IMG/VR virus record: IMGVR_UViG_3300044556_000087
Span: 1-49,949 of that record
Length of the DNA: 49,949 nt
Source of the DNA: a virus
Direction: 5' to 3' (one strand)
The position numbers were made by a program, and so were the translations under genes. Below, piece after piece: positions 11,642 to 31,685 of this stretch. How positions within the stretch are numbered: the first letter of the stretch is position 1; the number at the start of each line of letters is the position of its first letter. The notes beneath the pieces were generated by a model that searched no databases, had not been told where the DNA came from, and worked only from the letters and a program-made list of their open reading frames with translations.

Positions 11642-14600
11642 TGTGCAGATACGGATTATTGGCAAGGACGACGCAACAGGCGCATTCCGTAACGTAGCAC
11701 GGGAAGCGGCTAACGCACAGCAGCAGTTCGAATCATTCGGAAACTCCATGCTTTCCGTTCATTCCGTACTGCAAAACACTATGGCGTATGCCACGGCTAT
11801 ATCCGGGCTGAACGGTATTACAGACGCCCTGCATAGCGCTGTTGGCTCTGCACTGGAGTTCTATACGACGATGCAGACCGGGTCTATATCTCTGGCCGGG
11901 TCGCTCATGTCCATGGGCCAGATCAACGGGCAGGCCATCCAGTGGAACGAAGCCCTGGGAATGTCGAAGACGCTGATGCGGGAGCTGTCTGATCAGGCGC
12001 TCGTTACGGGTGCCAGCACGAAAGAAATTTCCGAAGTCTTTCGTGCTATGCTGCCGAACGCGCTTAATGCCAAGATGACTATTGAGCAGACCATGAAACT
12101 GGCCAGTGCCTTTACGACGACTGGTAAAGCGATGGGCATCAGTGGTGATATCCTGGCACGAGACGTCCGTGATGTCATTAATGGCCGGAACGTCGAACGT
12201 ACGACTCTGGGTATGCAGTTAGGCCTTACTAACGAAGAAATCCAGCAGGCGAAACAGTCTGCAGATGGGCTGTTCAATTTCTTATCGGAACGTCTTCGTG
12301 GTGAAATGGAAGCCAACGGGCATTATCTGGAAACGTTCGAAGGCCGTTGGAACCATCTGAAGGAATCGATTTCCCGTGTCGGTGGTGAAGCGCTGAGCCC
12401 GGTTATCCAGCAGGCGACGGACGAAATCAGTACCCTGGCCAATAAGCTGGTCGCTGTCGACACGAACACCGGGAAGGTACTCGGCATCAACGGTGACGTC
12501 ATTGAGGGCATCCGGGATGGTGCGATTGTCGTCGAGCACTTTGCCAGCGGCATCGCCGAAGTCGGTCAGGACCTGTCTACGGTCTTCACCCCGGCGCTAA
12601 AGGCTGCTGCTGCTCTCATCGAAGTCGGCGCTCAGCATACGACGGCCCTGACGGAGGCCATGATAGCACTCTGGGTAGGCCGTAAGCTGAGCTACTATGT
12701 CACGGACTACCGGAATGCCATCACGGGCGCGGCGACTGCACAGACGGCACTGGGGCGGGCTGCAGAACAGGCCCGTATCCAGATTACAGCTGAAGCGGAA
12801 GCACAGCGTCAGGTCAATCTGGCTAAAGCGCAGAACAGTATGGCTGCCCTGTCTGGTGCCTCCATGATGGGCAAGCTGGATACGGCAGGGATAGCAAAAC
12901 AGATAGCCCTCGAGGCATCCCTTGGTAACCAGATGCAGCGGAACATAGAGCTCACCATACAGCGCGTAACGGCCGCCCAGACGGCCCGGACTGCTTTTGA
13001 AGGCGCTGCCGCAGCTATGAAGGCTGGCGAAATGGAACTGGCCACCAAGATACTGGAAACGACGGCTACTCTCGAAGCTCAGGGAACCGCAGCCGAGCTG
13101 ATGTCTGCCCGGGCCAGCGAAGCCATTGCCCTCGTTAAGGCAGGTCAGGCAGACCTGGCGGCACAGATAGTCGAAACGACGCTGGCTAACGAGCTGCAGG
13201 GTACGCAGAGTCTGGCATCCGCTGAACAGGGCGTAGCCGGTGCAGCAATGGCCGGTGAGGCACAGACTGCTCTGAAGGCGAAGACTGTTGAAACGAACGT
13301 TGCCACCATTGCCACCGGGACGGCTGCTGCAGCTAGCGGAGCTAAGATAGTCAGCATGGGTGCCGTGGCAGGTCAGGCTATTAAAAATCTGACATCCCTG
13401 ACATGGAATCTCATTGGCGGCTGGCTCGGTGTTGCGGTAGCTATCGGGACCGCGCTCTATAAACTCTATGAATACGCCAGCGCGGAACGTGACTGGGAAA
13501 GCAATCATAGCTATTGGTACAAAGGTGCGACCTGGGTCGTAGACCGTAACGGTGGTGTCAAACGACAGGACTCTGGTGCTCCGACCGTCCCAGACTGGAC
13601 CGGGGTCGGCGCTGACTGGGACCAGGAAAGCCCGGAAGACATCGAGGCAATCAAACAGCTCAATGCTCAGCATGAGGAAGAGCTCAAGCGTCAGCAGGAA
13701 GAGCAGGAAAAGAATGAAATGATTGCCAGCATGGAAAAGTCCAAGCGCATCATGGGCGAGATAGCCAATGAACGTCCGGACCTTATCAACCAGGTCACTG
13801 GCAAGTACGCCGGTGGTGAAGGTGAGGGCGAAGGCGGTTCCGGCTCAGGTGCTGGCAGCGCTGCAGCAGCTAATAAAGAAGCGGCTGCCGCCCAGCGAGA
13901 AGCAGCTAAAGCGGCTCGTGAACAGGCACAGGCAAATAAAGAGTATGCCAATGTCATCACGGAAAATGCGCGTCGAATTACTCAGGCTAATGAGAAGGTA
14001 ACCAGTATCATCGAAAATCTGAATGATAAGCTGTTAGATCTTAACGGCACTCAGCTGCAGATTGACCTGAATAAGATTACCCGTGAGGTAAACGGGGTCA
14101 ATAAGGAAATCGCCAAGTCCGTCGTCGAGCTGAAGAAGTTCGTTCCGGGCACGGCTACCACGGGTGGTAGTTCTGTCGGCGATGCCATTTATCAGTATGG
14201 CGCCAGCCGTGATGGTACGCCGTATCTGCTGGGTGGTGACGGGCTGTCTGCTACAGATTGTGGCAAGCTGTTTTCCGATGCCGTCTTTGACGCAACGGGC
14301 GAACGGCTGCCTCGTTATGCCCCGGATATCATCGCGGCTGTCGGTGATGCCTGGCATCCGGCTGGTGATGGATACGTACCGGCTAAAGGTGATGGCGTCG
14401 TAGTCCTTGGTGATGGCCATATCGTCATTTCTAATGGCGAGGGCGGGTACGTCGGGGCTAACTCCAGTACAGGTGTTATCGAAAAGCCATCTGTGACGGA
14501 AGATTTCGGCGAAGTGACAGGTTACATCTCCATGGCACAGCTTTTCCCACAGCAGGCAGGAAGCAGCAGTGTCGTGATGCCTACGGTATCGCAGAACTCC

Positions 14601-16322
14601 GTATCCATTCCGCAAACACCATCTATCCAGACTATCGAAGAAGTGTCTCAGGAAATGAATGCCAGCGATTTGCTCAAGATTTTGCTGGCTATTGCTACAT
14701 ATGAATCCGGTGACCAGAAAAACATCTCGACGATTGGTTCTAATACCTATAACCCGGCATCGGGTGCGTCGGGCATCTTCCAGATTCTGCCTGGGCAGGA
14801 TTATCTCGGTGATGATGGCCAGCGCCATGCCATTCCGGATGATTACGCTGATACGGACCGGCAGAACACGATAGCAGCTATCGACCTGCTGCGGGGCAAA
14901 ATCCGCGAAGCAAACGGGGACATCTGGGAAGGCGTCAAGCACTACGGCGAAAATACCGAAGAGTATGTCGCCGGAGTCCGCTCCATCTATGATTCTCTGG
15001 GCGGTGATGGCATCAACCTAGCGCCGATGGGGACGGAGCTGTATAAGTCTCCGTTTATGTCAGAAGCGTATCAGAAACTGTCCGAATACCAGAAGGAAGC
15101 CATCAAAAATGCCATGGATGAATGGCAGCAGCGCCGGTCCAAGTACGCCGATGAAGCTGAAATTACGGCTGATGAAATCGGCATGAACGGCGGTGATGGC
15201 CGTCTGTGGTCCATGCAGCGGGAGCTGCAGAAGACACTGCGGGAAATCGATGAAAAACGCAAAGATGTCTATAAGCAGGTCGTTGGCAAGGGCGCAGACG
15301 ACAAAGAGGGCGAAGCCATTGTAGACCGGTATCAGGAAGTCCAGAAGGAAAAGGCACGTCAGGAAGAGCTCGAAAAGGAACGCGAGCTCATGAAGACGGA
15401 ACACGAGGAACGGCAGACACACCTGACCAGCATGGCCTACCTGCAGAACGATTTTGCCTATAAGGTCAGCCAGTATCAGCAGCAGGAACTGCAGAACTTT
15501 ACCAAGTATCAACAGGAACAGCTGGAAACAGCCAAGCTCACGCAGGAGCAGCGTATCAAGCTGGAACAGGAACTGTATGAAAACATGCAGAAACTGCACT
15601 CCCTTGAAGCGAAGACTGACTGGGGCGCCGGCCTGCAGGAACTGGGACGCAGCATGCGATCCTATACACAGGACATCGGCTCTGCGCTCAATCAGGGCTG
15701 GAGCAGTCTGACGGATACGATGGAAGGCGCTTTCGATAACATGCTGACGGAAAATGAGTCCTTTAGTGAACGGATGCGCAACCTGTACATATCGGTGGCC
15801 AACACTATCCTGAACACGATGATGAAGATCATCATGCAGGGGCTCATCATGCATGCCATTATGCAGGCCTGCGGGATGGGCGCCAATATTGGCCTTTCAA
15901 GCGACATCACGAGCAGCGCTATCAGCACGATGACGGGTGGGCTATCGTTCGGCGGTGGTACCTCACTGCCATCCGGCTTTACCTATCACCATTCCGTTAC
16001 GGGTTTTGCTAGTGGTGGTATCGTTTCGCCTGGCTATTTTATCGCAGGCGAGGAAGGTCGGGAACTCGTTGAAATGAGTGGCAGCAACGGCTATGTGCAC
16101 AATGCACGGGAAACGGCTGAAATCCTGAACGGCTCCAATGATGTCAAATCCGGCATCGAGAATGTCGAAGTCCGCATTGTCAATCAGTCCGGGCAACAGG
16201 TCAAATCAACGCAGGCAACGGCTCAGATTGATGGAAGGAAGCTCATCGTCACGACGATGCTGGAAGCCGTGGCCACGGACTACATGGGGAGCCGTACAAT
16301 GCTGAAAGGAGCGCTGGGATAA
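11628..16322 (+). CDS. Tape measure protein with embedded NlpC/P60 and lytic transglycosylase domains
   Basis: 1564 aa. Long Ala/Gln-rich coiled coils, hydrophobic segments, and a position between G-T and M-like genes. Confidence 0.9.
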   Translation: MAGTDVQIRIIGKDDATGAFRNVAREAANAQQQFESFGNSMLSVHSVLQNTMAYATAISGLNGITDALHSAVGSALEFYTTMQTGSISLAGSLMSMGQINGQAIQWNEALGMSKTLMRELSDQALVTGASTKEISEVFRAMLPNALNAKMTIEQTMKLASAFTTTGKAMGISGDILARDVRDVINGRNVERTTLGMQLGLTNEEIQQAKQSADGLFNFLSERLRGEMEANGHYLETFEGRWNHLKESISRVGGEALSPVIQQATDEISTLANKLVAVDTNTGKVLGINGDVIEGIRDGAIVVEHFASGIAEVGQDLSTVFTPALKAAAALIEVGAQHTTALTEAMIALWVGRKLSYYVTDYRNAITGAATAQTALGRAAEQARIQITAEAEAQRQVNLAKAQNSMAALSGASMMGKLDTAGIAKQIALEASLGNQMQRNIELTIQRVTAAQTARTAFEGAAAAMKAGEMELATKILETTATLEAQGTAAELMSARASEAIALVKAGQADLAAQIVETTLANELQGTQSLASAEQGVAGAAMAGEAQTALKAKTVETNVATIATGTAAAASGAKIVSMGAVAGQAIKNLTSLTWNLIGGWLGVAVAIGTALYKLYEYASAERDWESNHSYWYKGATWVVDRNGGVKRQDSGAPTVPDWTGVGADWDQESPEDIEAIKQLNAQHEEELKRQQEEQEKNEMIASMEKSKRIMGEIANERPDLINQVTGKYAGGEGEGEGGSGSGAGSAAAANKEAAAAQREAAKAAREQAQANKEYANVITENARRITQANEKVTSIIENLNDKLLDLNGTQLQIDLNKITREVNGVNKEIAKSVVELKKFVPGTATTGGSSVGDAIYQYGASRDGTPYLLGGDGLSATDCGKLFSDAVFDATGERLPRYAPDIIAAVGDAWHPAGDGYVPAKGDGVVVLGDGHIVISNGEGGYVGANSSTGVIEKPSVTEDFGEVTGYISMAQLFPQQAGSSSVVMPTVSQNSVSIPQTPSIQTIEEVSQEMNASDLLKILLAIATYESGDQKNISTIGSNTYNPASGASGIFQILPGQDYLGDDGQRHAIPDDYADTDRQNTIAAIDLLRGKIREANGDIWEGVKHYGENTEEYVAGVRSIYDSLGGDGINLAPMGTELYKSPFMSEAYQKLSEYQKEAIKNAMDEWQQRRSKYADEAEITADEIGMNGGDGRLWSMQRELQKTLREIDEKRKDVYKQVVGKGADDKEGEAIVDRYQEVQKEKARQEELEKERELMKTEHEERQTHLTSMAYLQNDFAYKVSQYQQQELQNFTKYQQEQLETAKLTQEQRIKLEQELYENMQKLHSLEAKTDWGAGLQELGRSMRSYTQDIGSALNQGWSSLTDTMEGAFDNMLTENESFSERMRNLYISVANTILNTMMKIIMQGLIMHAIMQACGMGANIGLSSDITSSAISTMTGGLSFGGGTSLPSGFTYHHSVTGFASGGIVSPGYFIAGEEGRELVEMSGSNGYVHNARETAEILNGSNDVKSGIENVEVRIVNQSGQQVKSTQATAQIDGRKLIVTTMLEAVATDYMGSRTMLKGALG
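14178..14500 (+). other. NlpC/P60-like cysteine peptidase domain inside the tape measure
   Basis: GDAIYQYGASRDGTPYLLGGDGLSATDCGKLFSDAV...GDGVVVLGDGHIVISNGEG. Cys codon at 14259-14261 and His at 14418-14420, in the expected spacing. Confidence 0.6.
14660..15000 (+). other. Lytic transglycosylase (SLT-like) domain inside the tape measure
   Basis: LLKILLAIATYESGDQ (catalytic Glu-Ser context, gaa at 14702-14704), followed by ASGASGIFQILPGQDY. Confidence 0.6.
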
Positions 16323-17307: not shown

Positions 17308-17714
17308 TTGATTATGAGGACCTCATCGGTATCCCGTTTGTTAATCATGGCAGAGACCGCCGGACTGGATTTGACTGCTACGGTCTGGTCATGGAGGTAT
17401 ATCGCCGATTCGGTATCGAGCTTCCGGAATTTACGGCAGACTGGGACGACGAGGATAAGATAAACAGTATCGTACAGCGGGAAGCGGGCTCATCCTCATG
17501 GCAAAGGGTAGAACAGCCGCTCCCGGTGCCATGCCTGGTCGCGCTCCGGATGGGGACACCGCCCGGCATTGTGAATCATACCGGGGTGTACCTTGGTAAT
17601 GGTAAATTTATCCATACACGGGCGAAAATCGGTGCCTGCATCAGCCGGATAGACTCTCCGGCATGGCGGGGAGTTATTGAAGGATTTTATGTATACAGGG
17701 GGCAGCAGACATGA
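17304..17714 (+). CDS. Tail tip NlpC/P60 peptidase (lambda gpK-like, lacking the MPN half)
   Basis: GFDCYGLVMEVYRRFGIELP ... NHTGVYLGNGKFIHT gives the Cys/His/His pattern of NlpC/P60. Overlaps neighbours by 4 nt on both sides. Confidence 0.8.
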   Translation: MIDYEDLIGIPFVNHGRDRRTGFDCYGLVMEVYRRFGIELPEFTADWDDEDKINSIVQREAGSSSWQRVEQPLPVPCLVALRMGTPPGIVNHTGVYLGNGKFIHTRAKIGACISRIDSPAWRGVIEGFYVYRGQQT

Positions 17715-20700
17715 TTACGGTTGTTTTCGTCAAAAACCCGTTCGAACCGCAGAAGAACCGGGAGGTCCATACGCTGCCCTATACCAAAGGCAAGAACGTT
17801 GATTACTATGTACAGCAGTGCACGAAAGAGCTCACGCTGCCGGACATGGTCATTTCCCGGAACAGCTATACCATAAACGGTGCCCAGCTGGTAAAGGATA
17901 ATGACTTTATCGTATTTGCTCCGGTCGTCGGTAAAGGTCATGGGAAGAACCCGCTGCTCATCATAGCAACGGTGGCCCTGTCCGTCGTGGCCATGGGTGT
18001 TGGTGGATGGGTGGCATCCGGTTTTACGTCATACGGGGCTGCGGGTTTAGCTGGCGCTTCAGGCTTTGCTGCTATTGGCGGGTATCTGGCCGCAGCGGCA
18101 GTCATGTTTGTCGGCGGTACGCTCATCCAGCGGGCTTTCGGAACTGCTAATGTGAGCGGGTATAAGAGTAGTTCGGAAAATCCGACCTACTCGTGGTCCG
18201 GTATCCAGACGACAACAGGGCAGGATAATCCGATTCCGATTACATACGGGACGGTCCGCAGCGGTGGCCAGACCATCGGCAAATACATCACGTCTGACTC
18301 GGATAAACAATATCTTAACTGGCTCGTTTCTGCCGGATACGGCCCGCTAAAGATTTACGATGTACAGCTTAATGATAATCCGATTGAAAACTATAAGGAC
18401 GTTAAGCTGGATACCCGGAGCGGGACGAATGATCAGGACATTATCCCGACATTTAACGATACTATCAGCACGAAGACATTAGGGTATGAGCTGCTGGACG
18501 ATGCCTGGCGTACGGACCTGGTAACCGGCACAGCGACTCAGGGGCTCATCATCTATGTAGAATGCTCGAACGGCTTGTATTATGCCAATGATAAAGGCGG
18601 GCTCGATGAGACATTTGTTGAAATCAAGGCCCAATATGCGCCGGAAGGCTCGTCTGACTGGAAAGATTTCCTGAGTCCGCATCATTATCTCGAGTCCAAG
18701 ACGAAATACCTCACACTCAATGACGATGCAGCCCCTATCGGCGAATACGATATCAAATTTAAGAAAAGCGGGGATAGCTGCACTATCACTGTTGGCCAAT
18801 ACAGCACGACCTATGTGACGAAACCGGAACGGACGATTGCTGTCGGTCCGTTTAACTGGGTCACGACGCATGAATTTAGCGCATGGGAAGCCATATTTCA
18901 GGGAAAAGCTTACGTTCGGGCGACGAAGGAATCAGCAGACAACGGCATGATTAAGGGCAATAAGTCATCTGCTATCCGTCGTCAGTATCGGGTGGATAAC
19001 CTGCCTGCAGGTCAGTATCAGGTCCGGATTAAAGTCACATCCCGGGGCTATCCTGTGACTTCGACACGTGCGGCAACACGTATCTGGTGGACCGGGGTTA
19101 GCGGCATCGTGTACGACGATTTTACCTACCCGAACATTGCCCTTATCGGCATCCGGGCCATGGCTACGGACCAGCTGTCCGGCTCTCCGACCCTGAAATT
19201 CATGAAACAGCGGTCTACGGTCTACGTCTGGAACCCGGCAACGAGCGCCTACGAAGAACACGATGCTACGAACCCAGCCTGGGCTGCTTATGATATGGTG
19301 CACCGGGCTAATAAAATAACGGATGCCCGAAACGGGAATACGGTCTATGTACACAGCGGAGCCGATGCCTCGCTGATGCTCTATAATCAATTTGCTGAAT
19401 GGGCGGCATATTGTGACCAGTTTAAACTTAAAATCAATATCGAAATCAACACGTCTGGAGAAATGCTGGACGTCGTGAACCGCTATATAGCTCCTGTCGG
19501 TCGTGGCATCGTCGAACTTTTTGGCACTAAATATGGCTGCTGTTGGGATGGCCCGAAAGAGGCGGTCCAGATGTTCGGCATGGGTAATATCATCACCGGG
19601 ACATTTTCTGAGACATTCCTGCAGACCTCGGACCGGGCGAATGCCGTCGAACTGACGTTTACCAACGCCCAGAAAGACTATGAACGGGATACGGTCAAGG
19701 TCTTCGGGCCTACGTTTGACACGGATGAATACGATACAACAAGCCAGCTCACCTATGACGGTATCACAGGCTATGAGCAGGCATACAGAGAGGCTAAATT
19801 CCAGCTGTACTGCAATGCCTACATGGTCCGTACGGTGTCGTTCCAGGCGGCGATTGACGCCATCGCCTGCACGGTCGGCGACGTCATCTACGTTGCTCAC
19901 GATGTGCCGATGTGGCAGACCAGCGGCAGGATAGCCGCCGTCGATGCGAATACCGTGACGGTCAATGCCGTGATGCGGTCCTATGACAGCTCGAAAACGT
20001 ATACCTTCGCGTATCGGTCCTCAGCGAATGATACCCGGTACGAAATCGGATGCTCCTCGATTACTGTCGGCGACTCGACGACAACAGTCGTCTTATCAAG
20101 TGTACCGGAATCGGCACCGGCTGTCGGGGATATCTTCGATATTGCAGAGGTGAGCAAAGGGACGAAAAAATTCGTAGTCCGCTCCATCAGCCGTACCGAG
20201 GACATGGTCCGGGAAATCGAGGCTATCGAATATAACGAGAACGTGTTTAACGAAAATTACACTATCCCGCCGATGAACTACAGCGACGCCGAGGACGATA
20301 ACGACGTCCGGAACGTCACGAATCTGACCGGACGTCAGATTAACTGGAAGGACAGCTCAGGCCAGCGGCATGCGCGACTGTATCTCTCCTGGTCTTACCC
20401 GGAACGGATGAGCTATCAGCGATTCACGATTTTCCTATCCAGCGACAATTCGTCCTACGTTACCGCTGGGTCATCCATCAACATGTATTTCGAGACTGAG
20501 GTCAACGTTGAGACGACATATCTCGTAAAGGTCGTCACGGTCAACCATCTGCGCAATTCGACCGGCACGACGATTAAAGTCGAGCCGGGCACCGATGAAC
20601 CGCCGGCAGACGTCAAGGCACTCAACGTCGAAAAGATGAGCTCCGGCCTGCGCCGGTACTGGTGGGAATTTACCTATCCAGACCCGGACGACATCGCAGG

Positions 20701-21643
20701 GTTCCGTATGAAGTATACCCAGGGGACAACGCTCAACTGGGGAAACGGCATCCCTGTACAGGATGGGCTCATCACCAGTCAGCCATACGAAACGCAGACG
20801 GTCCGGCAGGGTGTCCATGCAGTCATGATTAAGGCTGTCGACAATGCGGGAAACGAGAGCATCAATTTCGCGTACTGCCTGCTGGATATGGGCGACCTGC
20901 TCGAACAAAACGTTCTGTATTACAAAGACTATGCCGCCAATAACTGGGCAGAAACAAAGCATAACGGCTACCTTGAAACAGACGGCTATCTGTATCCGGT
21001 CAACAATACGGATATGTGGGAATCGGCTGCCAGCTACCGCTGGGATAATGCCGATGCCGCTGCCTGGTCGAACAACTGGCAGCCGTACACCGTGACTGCC
21101 GAGTTTACCGCTCCCGTTAGCGGTCAGATGTGGTTAAAATACGATATCGACGGTCCGGCCATCGTCTACTATCGCGAGGTGCTGGATACGGCAGCATGGG
21201 ACAGCGACGATGCGCCAGCGTGGATCAGCGTCAATACGGCTGCCTGGGAACTTGACGAAATGAAACTCTGGAAACAGTATTCTGACCGCATCAACATTGC
21301 AGCCGGCGATGAAATCCAGATCCAGATAGTCGCCTTGAACAACAACAACGAAAAAACGGTCGTCAAAGGGCTGTCGGTATACATCGACGTCCCAGACCGG
21401 AACGAACATTTCGAGGATCTGACGATTCCGGCGACAGGGATTGAACTGCCGATAGTGACACCGCACTATCACACGACAGCGGTGCACATCGACTCGGTAC
21501 AGGGCGGCAGCTCGACGACCATCCTGCAGCCGGTCATCGTGAGCCGGAATCCATGCGTGGTGAAACTCATCAACCAGAACGGAGAGGCCGTAGCCGGCAC
21601 GGTCGATATCAGCTGGCAGGGATACGTAGAGGAGGTTTTATAA
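17711..21643 (+). CDS. Fused tail assembly protein I-like / host specificity protein J-like central tip protein
   Basis: Residues 1-75 resemble the gpI beta-grasp part, followed by a Gly/Ala-rich hydrophobic stretch and PIPITYGTVRSGGQ. The later YPNIALIGIRAMATDQLSG...NPAWAAYDMVHR...AEWAAYCDQ parallels lambda J (YPNTALVGVQVDSEQFG...NMAWCLWDMLTHPRYG...IGQYCDQ). Confidence 0.85.
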   Translation: MITVVFVKNPFEPQKNREVHTLPYTKGKNVDYYVQQCTKELTLPDMVISRNSYTINGAQLVKDNDFIVFAPVVGKGHGKNPLLIIATVALSVVAMGVGGWVASGFTSYGAAGLAGASGFAAIGGYLAAAAVMFVGGTLIQRAFGTANVSGYKSSSENPTYSWSGIQTTTGQDNPIPITYGTVRSGGQTIGKYITSDSDKQYLNWLVSAGYGPLKIYDVQLNDNPIENYKDVKLDTRSGTNDQDIIPTFNDTISTKTLGYELLDDAWRTDLVTGTATQGLIIYVECSNGLYYANDKGGLDETFVEIKAQYAPEGSSDWKDFLSPHHYLESKTKYLTLNDDAAPIGEYDIKFKKSGDSCTITVGQYSTTYVTKPERTIAVGPFNWVTTHEFSAWEAIFQGKAYVRATKESADNGMIKGNKSSAIRRQYRVDNLPAGQYQVRIKVTSRGYPVTSTRAATRIWWTGVSGIVYDDFTYPNIALIGIRAMATDQLSGSPTLKFMKQRSTVYVWNPATSAYEEHDATNPAWAAYDMVHRANKITDARNGNTVYVHSGADASLMLYNQFAEWAAYCDQFKLKINIEINTSGEMLDVVNRYIAPVGRGIVELFGTKYGCCWDGPKEAVQMFGMGNIITGTFSETFLQTSDRANAVELTFTNAQKDYERDTVKVFGPTFDTDEYDTTSQLTYDGITGYEQAYREAKFQLYCNAYMVRTVSFQAAIDAIACTVGDVIYVAHDVPMWQTSGRIAAVDANTVTVNAVMRSYDSSKTYTFAYRSSANDTRYEIGCSSITVGDSTTTVVLSSVPESAPAVGDIFDIAEVSKGTKKFVVRSISRTEDMVREIEAIEYNENVFNENYTIPPMNYSDAEDDNDVRNVTNLTGRQINWKDSSGQRHARLYLSWSYPERMSYQRFTIFLSSDNSSYVTAGSSINMYFETEVNVETTYLVKVVTVNHLRNSTGTTIKVEPGTDEPPADVKALNVEKMSSGLRRYWWEFTYPDPDDIAGFRMKYTQGTTLNWGNGIPVQDGLITSQPYETQTVRQGVHAVMIKAVDNAGNESINFAYCLLDMGDLLEQNVLYYKDYAANNWAETKHNGYLETDGYLYPVNNTDMWESAASYRWDNADAAAWSNNWQPYTVTAEFTAPVSGQMWLKYDIDGPAIVYYREVLDTAAWDSDDAPAWISVNTAAWELDEMKLWKQYSDRINIAAGDEIQIQIVALNNNNEKTVVKGLSVYIDVPDRNEHFEDLTIPATGIELPIVTPHYHTTAVHIDSVQGGSSTTILQPVIVSRNPCVVKLINQNGEAVAGTVDISWQGYVEEVL

Positions 21644-22573
21644 ATGGCAGATGTAGAGAAATTGCTGGATGTCGCGCCATACCTGAAATACCCGTCGGAT
21701 GAAAGCCCAACGACTGAACAGCAGTATCAGGATTTTGTTAAAAACGTACATACGACATTAGCGAATACGCTGAACACGGTGAAACTGTGGCAACCGTCTA
21801 CGGCATATGCTGCGGACGAAATCATCTCCAGCCCGAATATGCAGCCGAACACGGTGGCCAAGGTCACGACAGCAGGTACCAGCAACAATATCGAGCCGAC
21901 CTGGACCGCTGCCGGAACGACTGTCGAAGACAACGGCTGCACGTATCTGATGGTCAGGAAATGCCAGGAATCGGCAACAGCCGACGAGGCCAAGGCCGGA
22001 ACGGATACGATGAAAATCGTCACACCGGCAGCACTGGCCGCGGTGCTGGCAGACTTTAAAAAACAAGTCATCAACGCGGCTCATCCGGTCGGAGAAATCT
22101 GGGAAACGACGACCGGCGACGACCCGAATAAACTCTGGTCATGGCAGAAATGGGTCAAGATGGACGCCGGCCGTGTGCTGGTAAGTGCCGGTACATACAC
22201 CGAAAACGGGACGTCGTACACGTACACACTCGGGGCAACCGGTGGCGAGGCGAAGCACACAATCACCATCAGTGAAATAGCATCACACAATCACGGTGCC
22301 AGCATCAGTACAGCTAATCTGACAGGTACCTGGTCAGCTAGTGGCTCACAGGGCCTTTCCAACAGCCCGAGCAATAGTTTTAGTGGCATCATCAGCGGTT
22401 CCGACTGGTCCGGTGATACTCACAGTGGCAGTAATGGTAATAACACACCAAAGACAATCACGATTAACGCCAGCCATAGCCACTCCGTTACGATAAACAC
22501 GACCGGCAACGGCTCAGCACACGAAAACCGCATGCCTTACACTGTAGTCAACCGTTGGAAGAGGACAGCCTAG
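21644..22573 (+). CDS. Tail fibre A (tail-collar-type receptor-binding protein), expressed copy
   Basis: 309 aa. LWQPSTAYAADEIISSP...EPTWTAAGTTV, DEAKAGTDTMKIVTPAAL, HPVGEIWETT...GGEAKHTITISEIASHNHG, and C-terminal GSAHENRMPYTVVNRWKRTA (collar-domain-like HxH / HxN-PY motifs). Confidence 0.8.
   Translation: MADVEKLLDVAPYLKYPSDESPTTEQQYQDFVKNVHTTLANTLNTVKLWQPSTAYAADEIISSPNMQPNTVAKVTTAGTSNNIEPTWTAAGTTVEDNGCTYLMVRKCQESATADEAKAGTDTMKIVTPAALAAVLADFKKQVINAAHPVGEIWETTTGDDPNKLWSWQKWVKMDAGRVLVSAGTYTENGTSYTYTLGATGGEAKHTITISEIASHNHGASISTANLTGTWSASGSQGLSNSPSNSFSGIISGSDWSGDTHSGSNGNNTPKTITINASHSHSVTINTTGNGSAHENRMPYTVVNRWKRTA
22268..22278 (+). repeat. Candidate crossover site A-left (ATCAGTGAAAT) inside fibre A
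   Basis: 11-bp core encoding (T)ISE(I). Its exact reverse complement is at 22871-22881, in the same codon register of the inverted cassette. Confidence 0.6.
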
Positions 22574-22881
22574 GCCGTCCGTTTCCAGCGATTAATAACT
22601 TGATAGGGCTGCCGGTTTTCATGCGCAGAACCAGAGCCCGTAGCGGAAATGCTGATATTGTGGTTATGCGAAGCTTTAATATACAACGCTCTGGTAGCAT
22701 CATTGTAATTTGATTGCCCTGTATGCACGCCATAGCGGCCGGCTGATACCGAGATTACGCCACTAGTCGATACAGAGGATGCGGCAAGTATCCCCATATT
22801 ACTATCAGTCGAGGTGATTGACCCGCTAAGGGATGTCGTTGAGCACGAAACATTGTGATCGTGAGTAGCCATTTCACTGAT
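22570..22881 (-). other. Silent inverted alternative C-terminal cassette for fibre A (about 100 aa)
   Basis: Minus-strand frame reads TISEMATHDHNVSCS...ASHNHNISISATGSGSAHENRQPYQVINRWKRTA*. It has the same start and end motifs as the expressed tip with a different middle. No RBS or promoter of its own; the ATG of track ORF 22570..22917 lies in the antisense of the next gene's RBS. Confidence 0.75.
22871..22881 (-). repeat. Candidate crossover site A-right (inverted copy of ATCAGTGAAAT)
   Basis: atttcactgat on the + strand is the reverse complement of 22268-22278. Flanking bases keep partial similarity (..GC....CAC.ATCAC..TG). Confidence 0.6.
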
Positions 22882-22902
22882 AGTTCGAAAGGAGAGATGT
22901 AT

Positions 22903-23352
22903 ATGAAGGTTTTTCAAATTTTAAAAGGACAGGTCCTCGTCATTGACGGGGACAAGCAATACTCGGATACCGTCGATAATTTCAAGACCGATGCTGGCCT
23001 TTCCAGCACTCCTGATATGGTCATCTACGACGACAATCAGGAGTGCTGTGTCGTCGATGGCAATTTTCTCGCCTACCCGAACGCACTCTATCAGTCGTAT
23101 ATCGACCGTATCGCTGAGCTCATCGCGGCCAAGGCTAAGCGCGAGTATGTCGCACCAGCCGAGCCAACCGCCGAAGAAAAGCTGGCCGCTGCGAAAGCAC
23201 AGCTCAAAGCCGATTATGAGGCCGCTGTGGAGTCGCTGACGTCTGATATGGCCACGGCACTGCTCCGGGGCGATACCGATGCCCAGAAGTCTATCCAGTC
23301 CGATTTTGCAGATTTACAGGATGCATACAAAGAAGAAAGCGAGGCACTCTAA
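22903..23352 (+). CDS. Hypothetical protein, possible fibre assembly/accessory protein
   Basis: ATG 22903 follows aaaggagag. 149 aa with a helical Ala/Glu/Lys-rich C-terminus. Lies between the two fibre loci. The functional guess is positional only. Confidence 0.55.
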   Translation: MKVFQILKGQVLVIDGDKQYSDTVDNFKTDAGLSSTPDMVIYDDNQECCVVDGNFLAYPNALYQSYIDRIAELIAAKAKREYVAPAEPTAEEKLAAAKAQLKADYEAAVESLTSDMATALLRGDTDAQKSIQSDFADLQDAYKEESEAL

Positions 23353-23486
23353 TGAAATTCAAACTCCCGAAACGCTGCGAATACTGCGCTCATAAATTAG
23401 TCGATGGTAAATGCGTCAATCCTGACTGCATCGCCTACACGAAACCGGAAACGACGACCACAGAAACGGCAGGTGACAGCAAATGA
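23352..23486 (+). CDS. Small zinc-ribbon-like hypothetical protein (44 aa)
   Basis: MKFKLPKRCEYCAHKLVDGKCVNPDCIAYTK... Start overlaps the previous stop (TAATG) and the stop overlaps the fibre B start (ATGA). Below the ORF-track size cutoff. Confidence 0.4.
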   Translation: MKFKLPKRCEYCAHKLVDGKCVNPDCIAYTKPETTTTETAGDSK

Positions 23487-24352
23487 GCATCCCGGCAGTA
23501 AAGAGTTTTACGAATTACAACAAATATAAAACCGAAACAGGGTACACCAAGCAGGGCGAACTGCAGCAGTACCTGCAGAACCAGAACGACGTACTAAGCG
23601 CCACAGCACAGGTCCTGCTCTGGCAGCCGGAAACATTGTACACCGCAGGCCAGCTGGTCTCCAGTCCATCCATGACGGCAGGGACGCTGGCACGGGTCAC
23701 AACGGCCGGGAAGACCAGTGACACGGAGCCAACCTGGACCGCATCAGGGACAACGGTAACGGACGGTACCGTCACATGGACGGTCACGAAAGCCGTCACG
23801 GACGCCGACAAAGCCACGAGCGACGAGGCTAAAGCGGGGACCAGTGACAAAGTCATCACGGCATCAACACTCAAAGCCGCCATGGATGCCGCTATCTCGT
23901 CAGCCATCAAGACGGCCACAGCAGCCATCGAGAAGCAGGTCAAGTTGGACGCACATCCTGTCGGCTCGTACTATTTTTCCGATGACAGCACGAGCCCTGC
24001 CGACCTTTTCGGAGGCACGTGGGAAGCACTGCCAGCAGGTTACACGCTCATCGCGCAGGGCTCTGGCACCGATGATTTCGGCTCGTTTAGCTACACGGCT
24101 GGACAGAAATACGGGGAACGACTCCACAAACTCACCGTCGATGAATTGGCATCACATTCGCACAGCTATACAACTATTCCTAAGACATGGGACCAAGTAA
24201 ATTACAGTAAAGATGATTTAGCTAACTGGAACGAATCGGCACGTCAGGCATCGGCAGGCGTTACATACTGGACTGATTCAACAGGCGGCGACAAAGCTCA
24301 TAATAATGTTCCGCCGGTTAAAGCCGTATATGCATGGCTTCGTATAGCCTGA
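23483..24352 (+). CDS. Tail fibre B (paralogue of fibre A), expressed copy with tip V1
   Basis: 289 aa. LLWQPETLYTAGQLVSSP...EPTWTASGTTV, SDEAKAGTSDKVITASTL, HPVGSYYFSDD...ERLHKLTVDELASHSHS, and C-terminus AHNNVPPVKAVYAWLRIA. Confidence 0.8.
   Translation: MSIPAVKSFTNYNKYKTETGYTKQGELQQYLQNQNDVLSATAQVLLWQPETLYTAGQLVSSPSMTAGTLARVTTAGKTSDTEPTWTASGTTVTDGTVTWTVTKAVTDADKATSDEAKAGTSDKVITASTLKAAMDAAISSAIKTATAAIEKQVKLDAHPVGSYYFSDDSTSPADLFGGTWEALPAGYTLIAQGSGTDDFGSFSYTAGQKYGERLHKLTVDELASHSHSYTTIPKTWDQVNYSKDDLANWNESARQASAGVTYWTDSTGGDKAHNNVPPVKAVYAWLRIA
24135..24147 (+). repeat. Candidate crossover site B-S1 (CCGTCGATGAATT) in expressed fibre B
   Basis: Encodes (T)VDEL. The same core in the same codon register heads every downstream cassette. 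Confidence 0.6.
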
Positions 24353-24355
24353 GCG

Positions 24356-24368
24356 CCGTCGAGGAATT
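24356..24368 (+). repeat. Candidate crossover site B-S2 (CCGTCGAGGAATT)
   Basis: One mismatch to S1. Starts 4 nt after the fibre B stop codon. Confidence 0.5.
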
Positions 24369-24573
24369 ACCGAACCATCATCATGCTATATATGCCGGAT
24401 ACGGCTACGATACAAGTGGCACTGCAGATGCTTACTGTTATCAGCATTGGGCTAATAACGACCAAAGGTGGCATGAAGAAGATACTATCAGCACGTCTTA
24501 TATCGGAGGTGGGACTGCCCATGCGAATCTGTCACCCAGTGTTGCAGTGTATGGCTGGAAACGTACCGCCTAG
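24356..24573 (+). other. Silent direct-orientation cassette V2 for fibre B
   Basis: Reads AVEELPNHHHAIYAGYGYDTSG...GGGTAHANLSPSVAVYGWKRTA*. The ATG of track ORF 24334..24573 lies inside the fibre B 3' end and has no RBS. Confidence 0.7.
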
Positions 24574-24577
24574 CGGC

Positions 24578-24589
24578 CCGTCGATGAAT
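24578..24589 (+). repeat. Candidate crossover site B-S3 (CCGTCGATGAAT)
   Basis: 12/12 match to S1. Starts 5 nt after the stop of cassette V2. Confidence 0.6.
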
Positions 24590-24795
24590 CAGCGCCACAC
24601 AACCACGGCCTTAGATTAAAAGGCGGTACATCTACAGATGCTAAGGACTGCTTTTTATGGGATTGGACTACTGATTGCAAGGAATCGACTCAGCCTAACG
24701 ACTCGTGGGATTTTATAGAACCATCAGGAGGCGGTCAGGCACATAATAACATCCAACCATCGTTAGCGGTCTACGCTTGGCGGCGCCAAGCATAA
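24578..24795 (+). other. Silent direct-orientation cassette V3 for fibre B (no start codon at all)
   Basis: Same frame as V2, open directly after its stop: RPVDESAPHNHGLRLKGGTSTDAKDCFLWDWTTDCKESTQPNDSWDFIEPSGGGQAHNNIQPSLAVYAWRRQA* (stop 24793-24795). Absent from the ORF track because it has no Met. Confidence 0.7.
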
Positions 24796-25009
24796 ACTGC
24801 CAAAACGGGCTGAACGTTGTTATGAGCCACGTCATTGCCAATGTACTCGGTAAACACGTTGCCGCCTTTGCCATCATCAGAATTGTCTGTATCCCATGCA
24901 CAGTTTAATACGTTAAGAATTTTTTCACCAGATTGTTTGCAAGTGATGCACACCGGCGAGCCGTCTTTCCAGATGATTTTTGCCCTAACTTTAGCTAACT
25001 CATCGACGG
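24771..25009 (-). other. Silent inverted cassette V4' for fibre B
   Basis: Minus strand reads SVDELAKVRAKIIWKDGSPVCITCKQSGEK...GNDVAHNNVQPVLAVYAWRRQA*. It overlaps V3 tail-to-tail by 25 nt. Confidence 0.7.
24997..25009 (-). repeat. Candidate crossover site B-S4 (inverted; CCGTCGATGAGTT on the minus strand)
   Basis: aactcatcgacgg on the + strand. The 10-bp core CCGTCGATGA is identical to S1 and S3 but inverted. Confidence 0.6.
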
Positions 25010-25051
25010 AGAACAACTCGGACAGCATCGGGCACGTTCGGACGGCAGACA

Positions 25052-25080
25052 CCGCTTTTGTCCGCTTTTGTCCGTTTTTA
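25052..25080. repeat. Tandem 10-mers ccgcttttgt x2 plus a degenerate third copy
   Basis: accgcttttgtccgcttttgtccgttttta, lying between site S4 and the 3' end of the recombinase gene. Confidence 0.8.
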
Positions 25081-25177
25081 TCAGCATCAAGACCTAGACA
25101 AATACCGCGTTAAGCACACAGCCACAGTAGGCGGTGTGCGTGATTACACGGCCGTTGCGTCGGCTCTTAGTATCATA

Positions 25178-26146
25178 CTACACACGGTCAATAGCCTTTT
25201 TCAGGTCAGCAAGCGTCTTGTGCGTGTATACTCCCTTTGTGATGCCTGGCCGAGCATGACCGAGAATCATGCGGATGGTCGTCTCATTGACTTCGGCACG
25301 GTCGAGCAGAGTTGCCAGCGTATGGCGTGCTTCATGGGGCGTGTGCTTCATGCTGACGGCTTTCATGGCTCTATCCCAGAGACGGCGGAAGCTGTCATAA
25401 GTCGCACAAGGACAAATCTGGCCGCTTGCTTTCCGCTCGATGAGGTACGGTAAGATTTTGTGATGGATGGGGATTTTGCGGATGCCTGCCGCTGTCTTCG
25501 ATTTCTTGATGTCGATGTATCGCTGTCGCGGCTTAATGTCAGCAGGAGTCAGCGCAAGATACTCACCTACGCGCATACCCGTATAGATGAGTATGAGTAC
25601 ATCAATGACGCCGTCGACGTCGGTCGAGCGCCAGAGCTTGCCTATCTGCCTAGCCGTAAAAGGCTTTTTCTTAAACATGATAACGTGCTTAGGCAATTCC
25701 ACAAATGGGCTTAGGTCATGGTCGACGATGCCGTTTTTGATTGCCCACTTGTACATCTGCGAGAGCAGAACACGGCACTTTTTACGGGTGCAGTATCCGG
25801 CGGGGACAGCATCGACAGCGGCCTGCAAATCTGGATATGTGATTGACGCAAAAGGCATGGCATGGAGCTGCTCTAGATGCCGATAGCTGATGCTATAGGC
25901 CGTCTGTGACGATTTGCCTATCATTTCAAAGTTCCTTGACCTCCATGCGTAGTAGACGGCAGTAAAGGTCAATTCTCGGGAGGGCGTGCAGTGATTCAAC
26001 TCAACCAAAAACTCGAACGCTTCTTGGTAGCTCTGGAAATATCCCAGGGCTTTTTGTTTGCCATCGATTGTCTTTTTAACGACAAACGGGCGCCGCCGAT
26101 TGCCTTGTAGTCGGTACACGGTACCATATCCATTTGGTAATTTCAT
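25178..26146 (-). CDS. Tyrosine recombinase (second integrase-family gene); candidate fibre-cassette invertase
   Basis: C-terminal ARHTLATLLDRAEVNETTIRMILGHARPGITKGVYTH (R..H..GH..Y catalytic pattern) and N-terminal KLPNGYGTVYRLQGNRRRPFVVKK arm-type domain. Likely start is ATG 26146 after ggaaagga; track ORF extends to 26191. Confidence 0.85.
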   Translation of the reverse strand: MKLPNGYGTVYRLQGNRRRPFVVKKTIDGKQKALGYFQSYQEAFEFLVELNHCTPSRELTFTAVYYAWRSRNFEMIGKSSQTAYSISYRHLEQLHAMPFASITYPDLQAAVDAVPAGYCTRKKCRVLLSQMYKWAIKNGIVDHDLSPFVELPKHVIMFKKKPFTARQIGKLWRSTDVDGVIDVLILIYTGMRVGEYLALTPADIKPRQRYIDIKKSKTAAGIRKIPIHHKILPYLIERKASGQICPCATYDSFRRLWDRAMKAVSMKHTPHEARHTLATLLDRAEVNETTIRMILGHARPGITKGVYTHKTLADLKKAIDRV

Positions 26147-26179
26147 GTCAATCAAATCCTTTCCGTTTGGAGGTGTAAG

Positions 26180-26467
26180 ATGATTGAGCACATTATATCA
26201 ACATTAATCATTTCGCTCCTGTCAGCTGCAGGGGCTTATTTTTTTGGAGTCTACAAAGCAACGGCAACGGTCAAAAACGGGGTCCAGGCAATCCTCCGGT
26301 ACGATATGCTGACCGCATACAGTAAATTCCGGACGTCTGGTTGCACCATCGAAGAAAAACAATCCTTTGAAAACATGTACAACTGCTACCACAAGCTAGG
26401 CAAGAACGGCGTCATGACTGCCTTCTATGAAAAAGTGATGGCTATGGAGGTAAATGATGAAAAATAA
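26180..26467 (+). CDS. Membrane-anchored lysis-module protein (holin-like or holin accessory)
   Basis: RBS ggaggtgtaag. One N-terminal TM segment (IISTLIISLLSAAGAYFFGVY). First gene of the lysis block. Function is inferred. Confidence 0.45.
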   Translation: MIEHIISTLIISLLSAAGAYFFGVYKATATVKNGVQAILRYDMLTAYSKFRTSGCTIEEKQSFENMYNCYHKLGKNGVMTAFYEKVMAMEVNDEK

Positions 26468-26819
26468 AATCATCAAGCTCGGGGAGTGGGGAAAACGCCA
26501 CTGGCTCCAGCTCATCGTTATCATGGGCGTCATCATGATGACGTTCCTGGTCCTCGTCCTCATCAGCTGGCTCATCGGCTACTGGGCAAACGCTCTCCTG
26601 GGCACGAAATTTGAGCTCATGAGTTGCTGGAGCGGGGTCGCGGCTGTGGCTAGTGGCATCGCCACCATCGTCGGCCTAGGCAAGGCCTGCTGGACCAAAT
26701 ACGGATATGACAGCCGCTATAACTCCGCTGTAGGTACTATGCCTAAAGTGGCAGAAACAGCCGCCAAAGCGGCAAATATCATCGAAAAAGCGGCAACCAA
26801 AATAGAACAGAAAGGGTGA
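26454..26819 (+). CDS. Putative holin (two or three TM segments)
   Basis: WLQLIVIMGVIMMTFLVLVLISWLIGYWA and SCWSGVAAVASGIATIVGL hydrophobic helices with a charged C-terminus. Directly upstream of the lysozyme-like gene. Confidence 0.5.
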   Translation: MMKNKIIKLGEWGKRHWLQLIVIMGVIMMTFLVLVLISWLIGYWANALLGTKFELMSCWSGVAAVASGIATIVGLGKACWTKYGYDSRYNSAVGTMPKVAETAAKAANIIEKAATKIEQKG

Positions 26820-27454
26820 TGTATATGTTAGGAGATTTAAGCGCACGTTATGAGAGCAACGGCGACCCGGGCTGCATCTCAGACGGCTACGGCGACCCGG
26901 GCGGCAAATCGTACGGCACGTACCAGTTTAGCTCCAACGCAGGCAGTCTGGATGCCTTTTGCAACTGGCTGCAGTACAACTATCCGCAGTACGCGGAGCA
27001 GCTCAATACCTATCCGATGTGCAGCACCAGCTTTGATGAGGCATGGCGCAACATTGCGGCATCCGACAGCGACGGTTTTGCTCAGGCTCAGCACGAATAT
27101 GTTAAGGCGACCTACTATGACCCCGCTGTCGAGATACTGGCTAACAACTATTGGCGCATCGAAAACCACAATGCCGTCATGCAGGACGTTGTTTGGAGCC
27201 GGGCTGTGCAGTACGGTGTGGGCAACATCCTCGACATGTGGACCGAGGCCGTACACTCCATGTACAACGTGACCAGTGGCGGCTATGACGGCTATCCCAA
27301 TCTGAGCTACATCGACGCCAATGAGTACGACTATGATTTTATAGTCGCAATCTATACCGTCTGCAAAAGCGAGGAATGGAACAGCTCGGCACTTCGAGAT
27401 AGTTTAAATAACCGTTTCGACAGCGAAATGCATGATGCCCTTGCTCGTCTATAG
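26816..27454 (+). CDS. Putative endolysin (lysozyme/transglycosylase-like fold)
   Basis: LSARYESNGDPGCIS...GKSYGTYQFSS has a Glu-Ser-x-Gly context like lysozyme-like hydrolases. Lies between holin and spanin-like genes. Family not firmly recognised. Alternative starts at 26819 and 26825. Confidence 0.5.
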   Translation: MMYMLGDLSARYESNGDPGCISDGYGDPGGKSYGTYQFSSNAGSLDAFCNWLQYNYPQYAEQLNTYPMCSTSFDEAWRNIAASDSDGFAQAQHEYVKATYYDPAVEILANNYWRIENHNAVMQDVVWSRAVQYGVGNILDMWTEAVHSMYNVTSGGYDGYPNLSYIDANEYDYDFIVAIYTVCKSEEWNSSALRDSLNNRFDSEMHDALARL

Positions 27455-30463: not shown

Positions 30464-31570
30464 TTACAGGATGCTGTCCATCACGGAGAGAGCTTCTTTT
30501 TCGCGCTTTTCCGTGATGCTGTCATAGATATTAGCCGTCGTGTACACCGAGGCATGACCGAGGCGCTTCGAAACGTAGTCCAAGGCAATGCCGTTCTCGA
30601 TTAACATGGTAGCGTGAGTATGCCGGAACGAGTGGAAGGACAGCCCGCCGAAGTGCTCCCGGCACCAGAGGTTGAAGTACCGGGTCTTGTTGCTGGTGAG
30701 TGGTTTCCCGTTCTCCTCGGTGCACACCGCGTCCGATCGGCGGTAGTACCGTCCATACTCAAACTGGTTCCGCTCCTGCCAGAGCTTCTGGGCTTTCAGC
30801 TCGGCTGCCAATTTCTGGCCAAAGGTGATGACCCGCAGTGATGATGCAGTCTTCGGCGACTCGATACGGGCATCCCCAGTCTTATCGTATTTATTGCCTA
30901 CGACCTCCAGCGTATGCGCTTTTAGATCTACATTCGCCCAGCGCAGGGCCAGGCATTCCCCGAGCCGCATCCCGGTGCAGTAGGAGAGCATGCACGGCAT
31001 GTGGAGCTGATTCCCTCGCGGAAATCGTTCGAAAATCTGCTGAATCTGGTCAGCCGTGAAGACCTTAATCATCTGGAACTGCGGGGCATACCGGGGCACC
31101 CGTACGTTATCCATGGGGTTGATGGTAAGGTACCTGCGATTGGCCACACACCAACGGAACGAGGACCGCAGGACCGCTGCAATAGATTTCAGGGTACCTC
31201 GTGCATACGTATTCCGCAAACCCGTGATGTAGTCCTGCAGCATCGGAGTCGTGATGTCCTTCAGCCGGACCTTGGCAAAAGCAGGAGTCAGGTGATTATC
31301 GACGATGTTTTCATAGGCATCTACCGTGTTCGGTTTCAGGTTGATGCGGACTTCCTTTTCCATCCATTCCTTCAAGAAATCCGGATAGAGCATACTGGAC
31401 GGTTCGAAAAATTTCCCGGTCCGGTCTATCTCCTGCATGGCAGCACGATAAGCCCGGGCAGCCTCAGCACGGCTAAAACCGCCAAAGTGCTCGTGCTTAT
31501 GGTACCTGCCCATAGCATCCGTTTCGTTTATGGTATAGTACCATCTATCCTTGATTTGTCGTAAAAACAT
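30464..31570 (-). CDS. int: Phage integrase (tyrosine recombinase), lysogeny module
   Basis: HSFRHTHATMLIENGIALDYVSKRLGHASVYTTANIYDS catalytic region and N-terminal KDRWYYTINETD...GGFSRAEAARAY arm-binding-type domain. Likely start is ATG 31570 after aggaggctgatttac; track ORF extends to 31618. Confidence 0.9.
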   Translation of the reverse strand: MFLRQIKDRWYYTINETDAMGRYHKHEHFGGFSRAEAARAYRAAMQEIDRTGKFFEPSSMLYPDFLKEWMEKEVRINLKPNTVDAYENIVDNHLTPAFAKVRLKDITTPMLQDYITGLRNTYARGTLKSIAAVLRSSFRWCVANRRYLTINPMDNVRVPRYAPQFQMIKVFTADQIQQIFERFPRGNQLHMPCMLSYCTGMRLGECLALRWANVDLKAHTLEVVGNKYDKTGDARIESPKTASSLRVITFGQKLAAELKAQKLWQERNQFEYGRYYRRSDAVCTEENGKPLTSNKTRYFNLWCREHFGGLSFHSFRHTHATMLIENGIALDYVSKRLGHASVYTTANIYDSITEKREKEALSVMDSIL

Positions 31571-31685
31571 GTAAATCAGCCTCCTAATCATGGCGGATAG
31601 CGGGCTGATGTGGTACAATAAAACTGTAGATCAGCCCTAAATATCTACACATCGCCGGTCCGGTACTGGTAATACCATCCGGCAC

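Follow-up and report, generated by a model that had tools for sequence, protein, structure and literature searches.

A probable tail-fibre shufflon beside a tyrosine recombinase in a Megasphaera-type gut phage

The virus record IMGVR_UViG_3300044556_000087 of IMG/VR, analysed here over its positions 1 to 49,949 (the window), is a temperate siphovirus-like phage genome of the gut, Megasphaera-type. Its gpJ-like protein gene is followed by two paralogous fibre genes, A and B, a tyrosine recombinase gene and then the holin and endolysin genes, and the canonical integrase and replication genes are placed downstream of these. The present work is concerned with the end of fibre B and the array behind it (locus B), in which the expressed fibre tip V1 is succeeded by three silent alternative tips, V2 and V3 in direct orientation and V4′ in inverted orientation, each headed by a copy of one short site (S1 to S4; Table 1). 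We consider it highly probable that locus B works as a shufflon with multiple inversions, through which the distal half of a trimeric tail-fibre tip of Gp10_C type is exchanged.

A preliminary description of locus B, made from the DNA letters, had listed four copies of a core, and their coordinates and sequences have all been verified, with S2 starting 4 nucleotides (nt) past the end of the fibre B stop codon (TGA, 24350-24352) and S3 starting 5 nt past that of V2 (TAG, 24571-24573). S4 and S1 constitute an inverted-repeat pair (I7 of the repeat scan). With at most one mismatch allowed, the 13-mer CCGTCGATGAATT has four copies in the window, all within 875 bp, against 0.12 expected, and none of 100 shuffles reached four copies. 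The strictly common part of the core is the 7-mer CCGTCGA together with GA at positions 9-10. All four cores are read in a common frame, xCC GTC GAK GAR, and the in-frame segment behind each remains open for 72-80 codons. The cassette peptides begin as had been quoted, with AVEELPNHHHA, PVDESAPHNHG and SVDELAKVRAK in V2, V3 and V4′, respectively, and the common ending AH(N/A)N..P..AVY(A/G)W.R.A is present in all four. It also holds that V3 (24574/24577-24795) has no start codon and is missing from the list of open reading frames (ORFs), and that the V2 ORF (24334-24573) borrows its ATG from the 3′ end of fibre B, in another frame. The 79-residue V2 ORF, with this out-of-frame ATG within fibre B (24334-24355), and a 93-residue V4′ ORF, with a GTG start inside the repeat block beside S4 (minus strand, 24997-25052), are cassette artefacts; public gene calls include such V2-type ORFs, for example a 79-residue gene in contig L022. 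V3 and V4′ converge, with a 25-nt overlap at 24771-24795, where ...AWRRQA-stop is encoded on both strands by the near-palindrome GCTTGGCG/CGCCAAGC, and these two tips therefore form one inseparable tail-to-tail invertible segment.

Full-length fibre B matches Gp10_C (PF21939) in Pfam along the whole profile with 59.3 bits, above the gathering score. The constant part alone scores 26.8 bits, below the cutoff, over positions 5-66 of the 139-position profile, and the cassettes map to approximately positions 70-139. Hypothetical fusions of the three silent segments to the constant part at the 7-mer are all in frame, with a single terminal stop and a full-length Gp10_C match (V2, 289 residues, 62.4 bits, profile positions 5-139; V3, 289 residues, 55.7 bits; V4, 296 residues, 55.7 bits). 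Since the fusions are in frame and score 55.7-62.4 bits compared with 59.3 bits for the expressed fibre, the silent segments are intact, functional-looking half-domains and not debris. A tip 56% identical to V2 is the expressed tip of another full-length fibre, P0010. V4′ is without the HxH motif of V1 to V3 and instead reads AKVRAK, with a C..C pair further along; the motif is also missing from many tips of relatives (e.g. PHLTGR, PKFTPT, PPVSGS and PHIRGD), and judged by these motifs there appear to be two structural tip classes on one constant base. A structure model of fibre B was dropped owing to too low a confidence in the tip (mean predicted local distance difference test score, pLDDT, 66.7; tip below 50).

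Table 1. Coordinates of the fibre loci and of other features in the window
Feature	Position	Strand	Remarks
Terminase	1861-3744		
Tape measure	11628-16322		
gpJ-like protein	17711-21643		
Fibre A, paralogous fibre	21644-22573	+	Pfam Gp10_C, 53.4 bits
Locus A expression-site core	22266-22278	+	CCATCAGTGAAAT
Locus A silent inverted cassette	22570-22883	-	Core CTATCAGTGAAAT at 22871-22883
Constant part of fibre B	23483-24134	+	217 codons; first half of Gp10_C only
S1, expression-site core	24135-24147	+	CCGTCGATGAATT; 7-mer CCGTCGA at 24135-24141
V1, expressed tip	24135-24352	+	TVDELASHSHS...AVYAWLRIA, stop
S2 core	24356-24368	+	CCGTCGAGGAATT; heads silent direct cassette V2 (24356-24573)
S3 core	24578-24590	+	CCGTCGATGAATC; heads silent direct cassette V3 (24578-24795)
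S4 core	24997-25009	-	CCGTCGATGAGTT; heads silent inverted cassette V4′ (24771-25009)
Conserved non-coding stretch, S4 to recombinase stop codon	25010-25177		Alignment of 17 relatives
Three TCGGRC 10-bp repeats	25018-25047		
Three CGYTTTTRTC 10-bp repeats	25053-25082		
TAAGCACA	25111-25118		Invariant in 17 relatives
Tyrosine recombinase, putative fibre invertase	25178-26146	-	322 residues; Pfam Phage_integrase (PF00589), E 2e-15
Canonical integrase	30464-31618		SAM-like N-domain; separate from the fibre recombinase

Fifty-six related loci (cited by L numbers where needed) have the layout of the window, with a constant fibre, two to six cassettes in both orientations and a tyrosine recombinase. 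Scans with the constant region gave 21 IMG/VR viral loci, 32 metagenome loci and two loci in Megasphaera genomes, and exact look-ups of two close fibre proteins added three contigs, two of them mutually identical and one being the contig of L001. Where a contig is long enough, fibre A with one to three silent cassettes precedes two small conserved ORFs and fibre B, which is followed by two to five silent cassettes in both orientations and then by the recombinase. The recombinases of the relatives are 52-94% identical to that of the window, except in the most distant phage (L023/L025, 37%), and the gene adjoins the cassette array or terminal site in every related locus that reaches that far. 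Related prophages occur in the chromosome of Megasphaera hexanoica MH (NZ_CP171361.1, at about 2.385-2.394 Mb, locus L055) and in a metagenome-assembled genome of Megasphaera, and the named sources of homologous proteins are Megasphaera, Acidaminococcus, Mitsuokella and Allisonella. The constant part is 45-78% identical across 36 homologues up to H(K/Q)LT. In an alignment of 37 fibre B homologues, conservation extends to H(K/Q)LT-x-(D/E/G)-E-(L/M), past which the sequences are unrelated until a common C-terminal strand, and several database protein groups combine the same constant part with different tips. A search for DNA near-identical to the 21.6-26.2 kb region among 50,697 phage records gave no match.

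Near-identical relatives differ by exact reciprocal inversions with junctions within the core. The contigs of these isomer sets come from different samples and are 99-100% identical except in the cassette block and, within the L006 group, in one stretch of about 1 kb that spans the recombinase; in the inversion model, any interval from a '+' site to a '-' site may be reversed and flipped. The L006 group (L006 and L028-L031, of which L028 is partial) carries a three-cassette array of window-type layout, namely an expressed tip, a direct cassette right behind the stop codon and an inverted cassette. Exactly four isomers are predicted for it by an inversion-only model, and the same four are seen (L006, L029, L031 and L030). 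In L030 the constant region is joined to the formerly direct silent cassette, and the tip that it displaced persists downstream in inverted orientation. L010 and L011 are two nested inversions apart, the whole cassette block is inverted in L018 relative to L050 and L049, and L012 and L041 differ by a locus A inversion at 99.8-100% identity. Within the clade of the window (core CCGTCGA), L059 and L060 hold the same six cassettes (95-100% identity) four inversions apart, in the order C: +2 -3 -6 -1 -4 -5 in L059 and C: +1 +2 -3 -4 -5 -6 in L060. Cassette 2, which is silent and direct in L060, is the tip expressed in L059, where the displaced tip is again retained in inverted orientation. The fusion of silent direct cassettes to the constant region, which the preliminary description had named as the product to be sought in related genomes, has thus been seen in two phages (L030 and L059). 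L060 is the contig of L001, at whose end a recombinase fragment of 78 residues shares 94% identity with the window's enzyme. In L059 and L060 the six-cassette block (4144-5478 in both) is 95-100% identical, against only 84-89% identity for the fibre and tail genes that flank it; whole arrays may pass horizontally between phages, or they may be unusually conserved.

The exchange maps to an invariant 7-mer, CCGTCGA in the window, since the junction sequences place it there: at every junction the left flank is stationary and core base 8 onward moves with the cassette, the polymorphic base 8 (A, T or G) serving as the marker. S1 is homologous to the breakpoints mapped in the relatives. Among 95 non-redundant silent sites, located via their cassettes and not via the 7-mer, the mismatches to the phage's own expression-site core at positions 1-13 number 3, 3, 1, 4, 1, 0, 2, 29, 3, 3, 35, 56 and 6. 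Wobble positions 2 and 5 are frozen, while wobble positions 8 and 11 vary freely; the codon before Val in the window is ACC, GCC, CCC or TCC (T, A, P or S), always NCC, a type that accounts for only 7% of the codons of this phage. The frozen wobble bases and the constant NCC indicate that the constraint acts on the DNA and is confined to 7 bp. The preliminary description had allowed that the shared core might be due solely to selection on the VDE(L) peptide, which does not agree with wobble bases that are frozen in the 7-mer and vary next to it. Seven base pairs is the strand-exchange (overlap) length of lambda Int-family enzymes and also the spacer length of the sfx sites of the R64 shufflon. 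The bare 7-mer has 14 copies in the window (7.9 expected), so that it cannot define a site alone and an adjacent arm must contribute to recognition. Comparison with relatives, the route that had been advised for defining the site arms, yields the 7-mer plus a semi-conserved right arm, NGARNT. The left flank is unconserved except at S1, the only site at which it (CTCA) mirrors the right arm TGAR, and the silent sites are in effect half-sites. A pseudo-site, CCGTCGATAATTT, with the full 7-mer and without GA at positions 9-10, lies at 22970-22982 within the conserved 149-residue ORF between the fibre genes, in direct orientation relative to S1; it is not at the same position in the two close relatives scanned (L059 and L060) and is probably a chance occurrence.

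Six residues of the fibre recombinase (R192, K217, H271, R274, H297 and Y307) are invariant in 15 homologues and are the candidate catalytic set, as suggested by the usual motif spacing of tyrosine recombinases. More than 1,300 homologues are found at E <= 1e-30. The AlphaFold model comprises an N-terminal beta3-alpha domain (residues 9-51, pLDDT 75-86), a core-binding domain and a catalytic domain, and its best structural matches in Foldseek are Tn1549 Int and full-length lambda Int (1z1b_A, aligned over the full length). A search of the N-terminus against the Pfam arm domains gave no match by sequence. No serine recombinase (Resolvase) is present among the 28 ORFs scanned with Pfam, and a tRNA or attP beside the recombinase was rejected, as the window has no tRNA gene. 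The enzyme looks like an integrase paralogue recruited as an invertase, and we infer from the position of its gene and its co-conservation with the arrays that it catalyses the inversions.

The constant gene ends mid-domain, and the four promoterless, start-less cassettes each begin with CCGTCGA and the NGARNT arm. In the proposed mechanism, the recombinase would pair two oppositely oriented sites, exchange strands within the 7-mer and invert the interval between them, leaving the left flank stationary and moving base 8 onward with the cassette. Inversion between S1 and S4 would lead to expression of V4 and a second inversion to expression of V2 or V3, and twelve isomers would be reachable in the window. 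Nested inversion of this kind, as put forward in the preliminary description, is upheld in the relatives, and not in the window phage itself, by the reciprocal isomers and the expressed direct cassettes, from which we infer activity in the window phage. Several observations weigh against the shufflon. No isomer of the window's own V2, V3 or V4′ occurs in the data examined; L022, the sole other contig of this phage (99.9% identical, from metagenome JGI 3300043933), is colinear, and an exact look-up of the recombinase protein returned one contig only, the window itself. A V2+V3+V4 concatenate had no match at E <= 1e-5 among 5.8 billion protein clusters, and the closest fibre B homologues carry other tips, none of them a silent tip of the window. 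Relatives of the recombinase at 27-35% identity in the two cultured phages inspected, Butyrivibrio phage Arawn and Fusobacterium phage phiHugo, hold an ordinary integrase position between the lysis and lysogeny modules, so that only position and co-conservation link the window's enzyme to the catalysis of inversion. Finally, the three direct sites should permit deletion as well.

Three other explanations have to be weighed against these data. V2, V3 and V4′ could be decaying tip duplicates whose core is kept by selection on a V(D/E)E(L) peptide, without any site-specific recombination; the core does encode a conserved motif that opens the second half of Gp10_C, and the missing isomers of the window's cassettes would be expected. 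Decay accords poorly, however, with silent cassettes that are uninterrupted for 72-80 codons and complete Gp10_C, with free variation at wobble positions 8 and 11 beside a frozen 7-mer, with an untranslated codon before Val that is always NCC despite T, A, P or S, and with the reciprocal isomers of the relatives, all of which render it very improbable. Equally poor are the prospects of the proposal that the fibre recombinase is a second integrase or a relic and that tip mosaicism arises by homologous recombination of co-infecting phages at the conserved motif. The integrase-like position of its relatives in cultured phages speaks for it, as do the L059/L060 blocks, whose high identity between more divergent flanks suggests horizontal movement of the array too; yet the isomers are exact reciprocal inversions in otherwise 99-100% identical genomes, the recombinase adjoins the terminal site in every locus that reaches it and the phage already has an integrase in the canonical position. 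Identity over 7-13 bp is, moreover, too short for RecA-type exchange. We regard this explanation, too, as having very little chance of being correct.

The direct cassettes might alternatively be activated by deletion, in which S1 x S2 or S1 x S3 recombination would excise tips as a circle in a one-way switch. The sites are asymmetric and directly repeated, so that a simple tyrosine recombinase should excise, and the cassette number varies from three to six across phages. On the other hand, the formerly expressed cassette is kept inverted downstream in L030 and L059, cassette content is identical within each near-identical group (five, two and three contigs) and between L059 and L060, and several lineages keep arrays with three direct sites. 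A look for deletion products gave no unambiguous case, and the sole deletion-like pair, L023 and L027, was not counted, as two inversions on a short contig explain it equally well. Activation by deletion thus seems quite unlikely, if slightly less so than the two explanations above, and the stable cassette content argues for an inversion bias of the shufflon.

A possible source of such a bias lies between S4 and the recombinase, where the non-coding stretch conserved in 17 relatives contains two sets of three tandem 10-bp repeats and the invariant TAAGCACA. Three exact tandem copies form a cluster found nowhere else in the window, and locus A is without such tandem repeats. The repeats and TAAGCACA are candidates, on sequence grounds, for arm-type or accessory sites or for phased bends, and together with the predicted arm-type N-domain the repeats suggest a lambda-like accessory control. 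A TTGACA-like element stands between the T-tract repeats and TAAGCACA; these two were rejected as a promoter, their spacing differing by about 10 bp (about one helical turn) between clades and a scan having found none. TAAGCACA was also rejected as a terminator, given a weak match and an invariant sequence that speaks against a simple stem. An Rfam scan of 21000-27000 found no RNA family.

Locus A (21644-22883) is built on the same plan, with one inverted silent cassette, sites of the form C(C/T)ATCAGTGAAAT and an inverted repeat (I3). Relatives have up to four locus A sites, and the locus A cassettes common to L002 and L003, and to L005 and L006, are in opposite orientation. The 7-mers of the two loci differ by at least 2 nt in every phage in which both have been read: C(C/T)ATCAG at locus A and CCGTCGA at locus B in the window; CTATCAG and CCGTCGA in L001 and L004; CTGTTGA and CCGTCGA in L002; CTACCGA and CCGTCGA in L016; CTGCTGA and CCACCGA in L010; CTGTCGA and CCACCGA in L035; and CCACCGG and CTGTCGG in L023. 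The arm TGAAAT is common to both loci. The same recombinase probably inverts locus A too, and heterology in the overlap region would insulate one locus from the other. A fuller scheme, in which one lambda-Int-like recombinase runs two fibre shufflons insulated by their 7-bp overlaps (CCATCAG at A and CCGTCGA at B) and is restricted to inversion by arm-type repeats beside the fixed terminal site, is tentative, and we hold it to be rather doubtful. If true, it would answer the question 'why no deletion?' left by the Rin shufflon discussed below, and would show an integrase turned into a programmable multi-locus invertase.

Two small ORFs of 149 and 44 residues occupy the interval between the fibre genes (22903-23486), the shorter one with a C..C...C....C pattern. 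They are 85-100% identical in close relatives, which exceeds the conservation of the fibres, and their matches are confined to PHROGs of unknown function; a part in fibre assembly or attachment is possible. The putative endolysin (26816-27454) matches PF21277, a type VI secretion VgrG3-like C-terminal domain (E 2.8e-39), and was not matched to a classical phage lysozyme family.

A literature search found no paper on this system in phages of the Megasphaera group. Among known systems, the Rin shufflon of Bifidobacterium breve and B. longum prophages (Mavrich et al., 2018; PMC6109161) comes closest; it is reported from Eggerthella lenta prophages as well (PMC8778435). Like the system of the window, Rin is phage-encoded, and a tyrosine recombinase other than the phage integrase flanks its array. 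Its constant N-terminal receptor-binding protein gene likewise stands before several start-less C-terminal cassettes, each headed by a short asymmetric repeat, of which one copy is located in the gene and one directly past its stop. Its nested inversions were deduced from comparisons of prophages and virions, and the avoidance of deletion between direct sites is equally unsolved there. The Rin site is an 11-bp repeat, TTCCCTAACCC, whereas that of the window is the 7-mer CCGTCGA with the NGARNT arm, placed in codons mid-domain; Rin tips are TP901-1 receptor-binding protein-like and those of the window are of Gp10_C type, mostly with HxH; and the Rin enzyme is described as armless and XerD-like, in contrast to the predicted beta3-alpha N-domain, as in the lambda Int/Tn916 family, of the window's enzyme. 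The window phage, unlike Rin phages, has two fibre loci with different 7-mers, and the hosts are Negativicutes for the window's family and Actinobacteria for Rin. These contrasts are drawn from the published description of Rin.

The preliminary description had likened the array to the R64 shufflon and to p15B Min, and in both cases the combinatorial logic stands, Min being a multi-segment system; the enzyme class does not fit Min, which is a serine invertase and not a tyrosine recombinase. The R64/IncI shufflon (Rci, sfx and the pilV tips) shares with the window a tyrosine recombinase, a constant N-terminus with alternative C-termini and some segments with two convergent tails, and R64 inverts without deletion. 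In the sfx site, a 7-bp crossover or spacer is combined with two arms, of which only one is conserved. The site of the window resembles it in design and not in sequence, with its invariant 7-mer, semi-conserved right arm and unconserved left flank. The target in R64 is a pilus adhesin rather than a phage fibre, and nothing evident in the window's recombinase corresponds to the C-terminal domain by which Rci enforces inversion. Searched by tblastn against 72,556 plasmid records, this recombinase matched 72; among the 15 of these that were listed, all at 34% identity or less and annotated as integrases, none is named a shufflon recombinase. Site-specific inversion also switches the tail-fibre C-termini in Gin/G of Mu, Cin/C of P1 and Min/M of p15B. 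These three enzymes are serine invertases that act on 26-bp sites with a 2-bp crossover and a Fis-dependent enhancer, and the analogy with the tyrosine recombinase of the window is in outcome only. Lambda Int and the Tn916-Tn1549 Int enzymes have the three-domain architecture predicted for the fibre recombinase and a 7-bp identical crossover region; they integrate and excise elements, whereas the substrate in the window is an array of inverted and direct core sites in one replicon. By analogy, the tandem 10-bp repeats beside one core site recall the P′ arm sites of lambda and might be bound by the N-domain.

Tyrosine-recombinase fibre shufflons have so far been described for Bifidobacterium and Eggerthella prophages, and with the present findings a large family of gut Negativicutes phages joins these, its hosts including Megasphaera, Acidaminococcus, Mitsuokella and Allisonella. 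The natural isomers narrow the crossover to 7 bp and provide testable rules: identity of the 7-mer is needed within a locus, the 7-mers differ between loci and cassette content is stable despite direct repeats. Tip switching would have consequences for host range, its likely role being bet-hedging over receptor specificity within a population of lysogens or virions. One genome could thereby hold up to four (locus B) x two (locus A) receptor specificities, mostly invisible to gene callers, and such hidden tips bear on host-range prediction, annotation and phage engineering.

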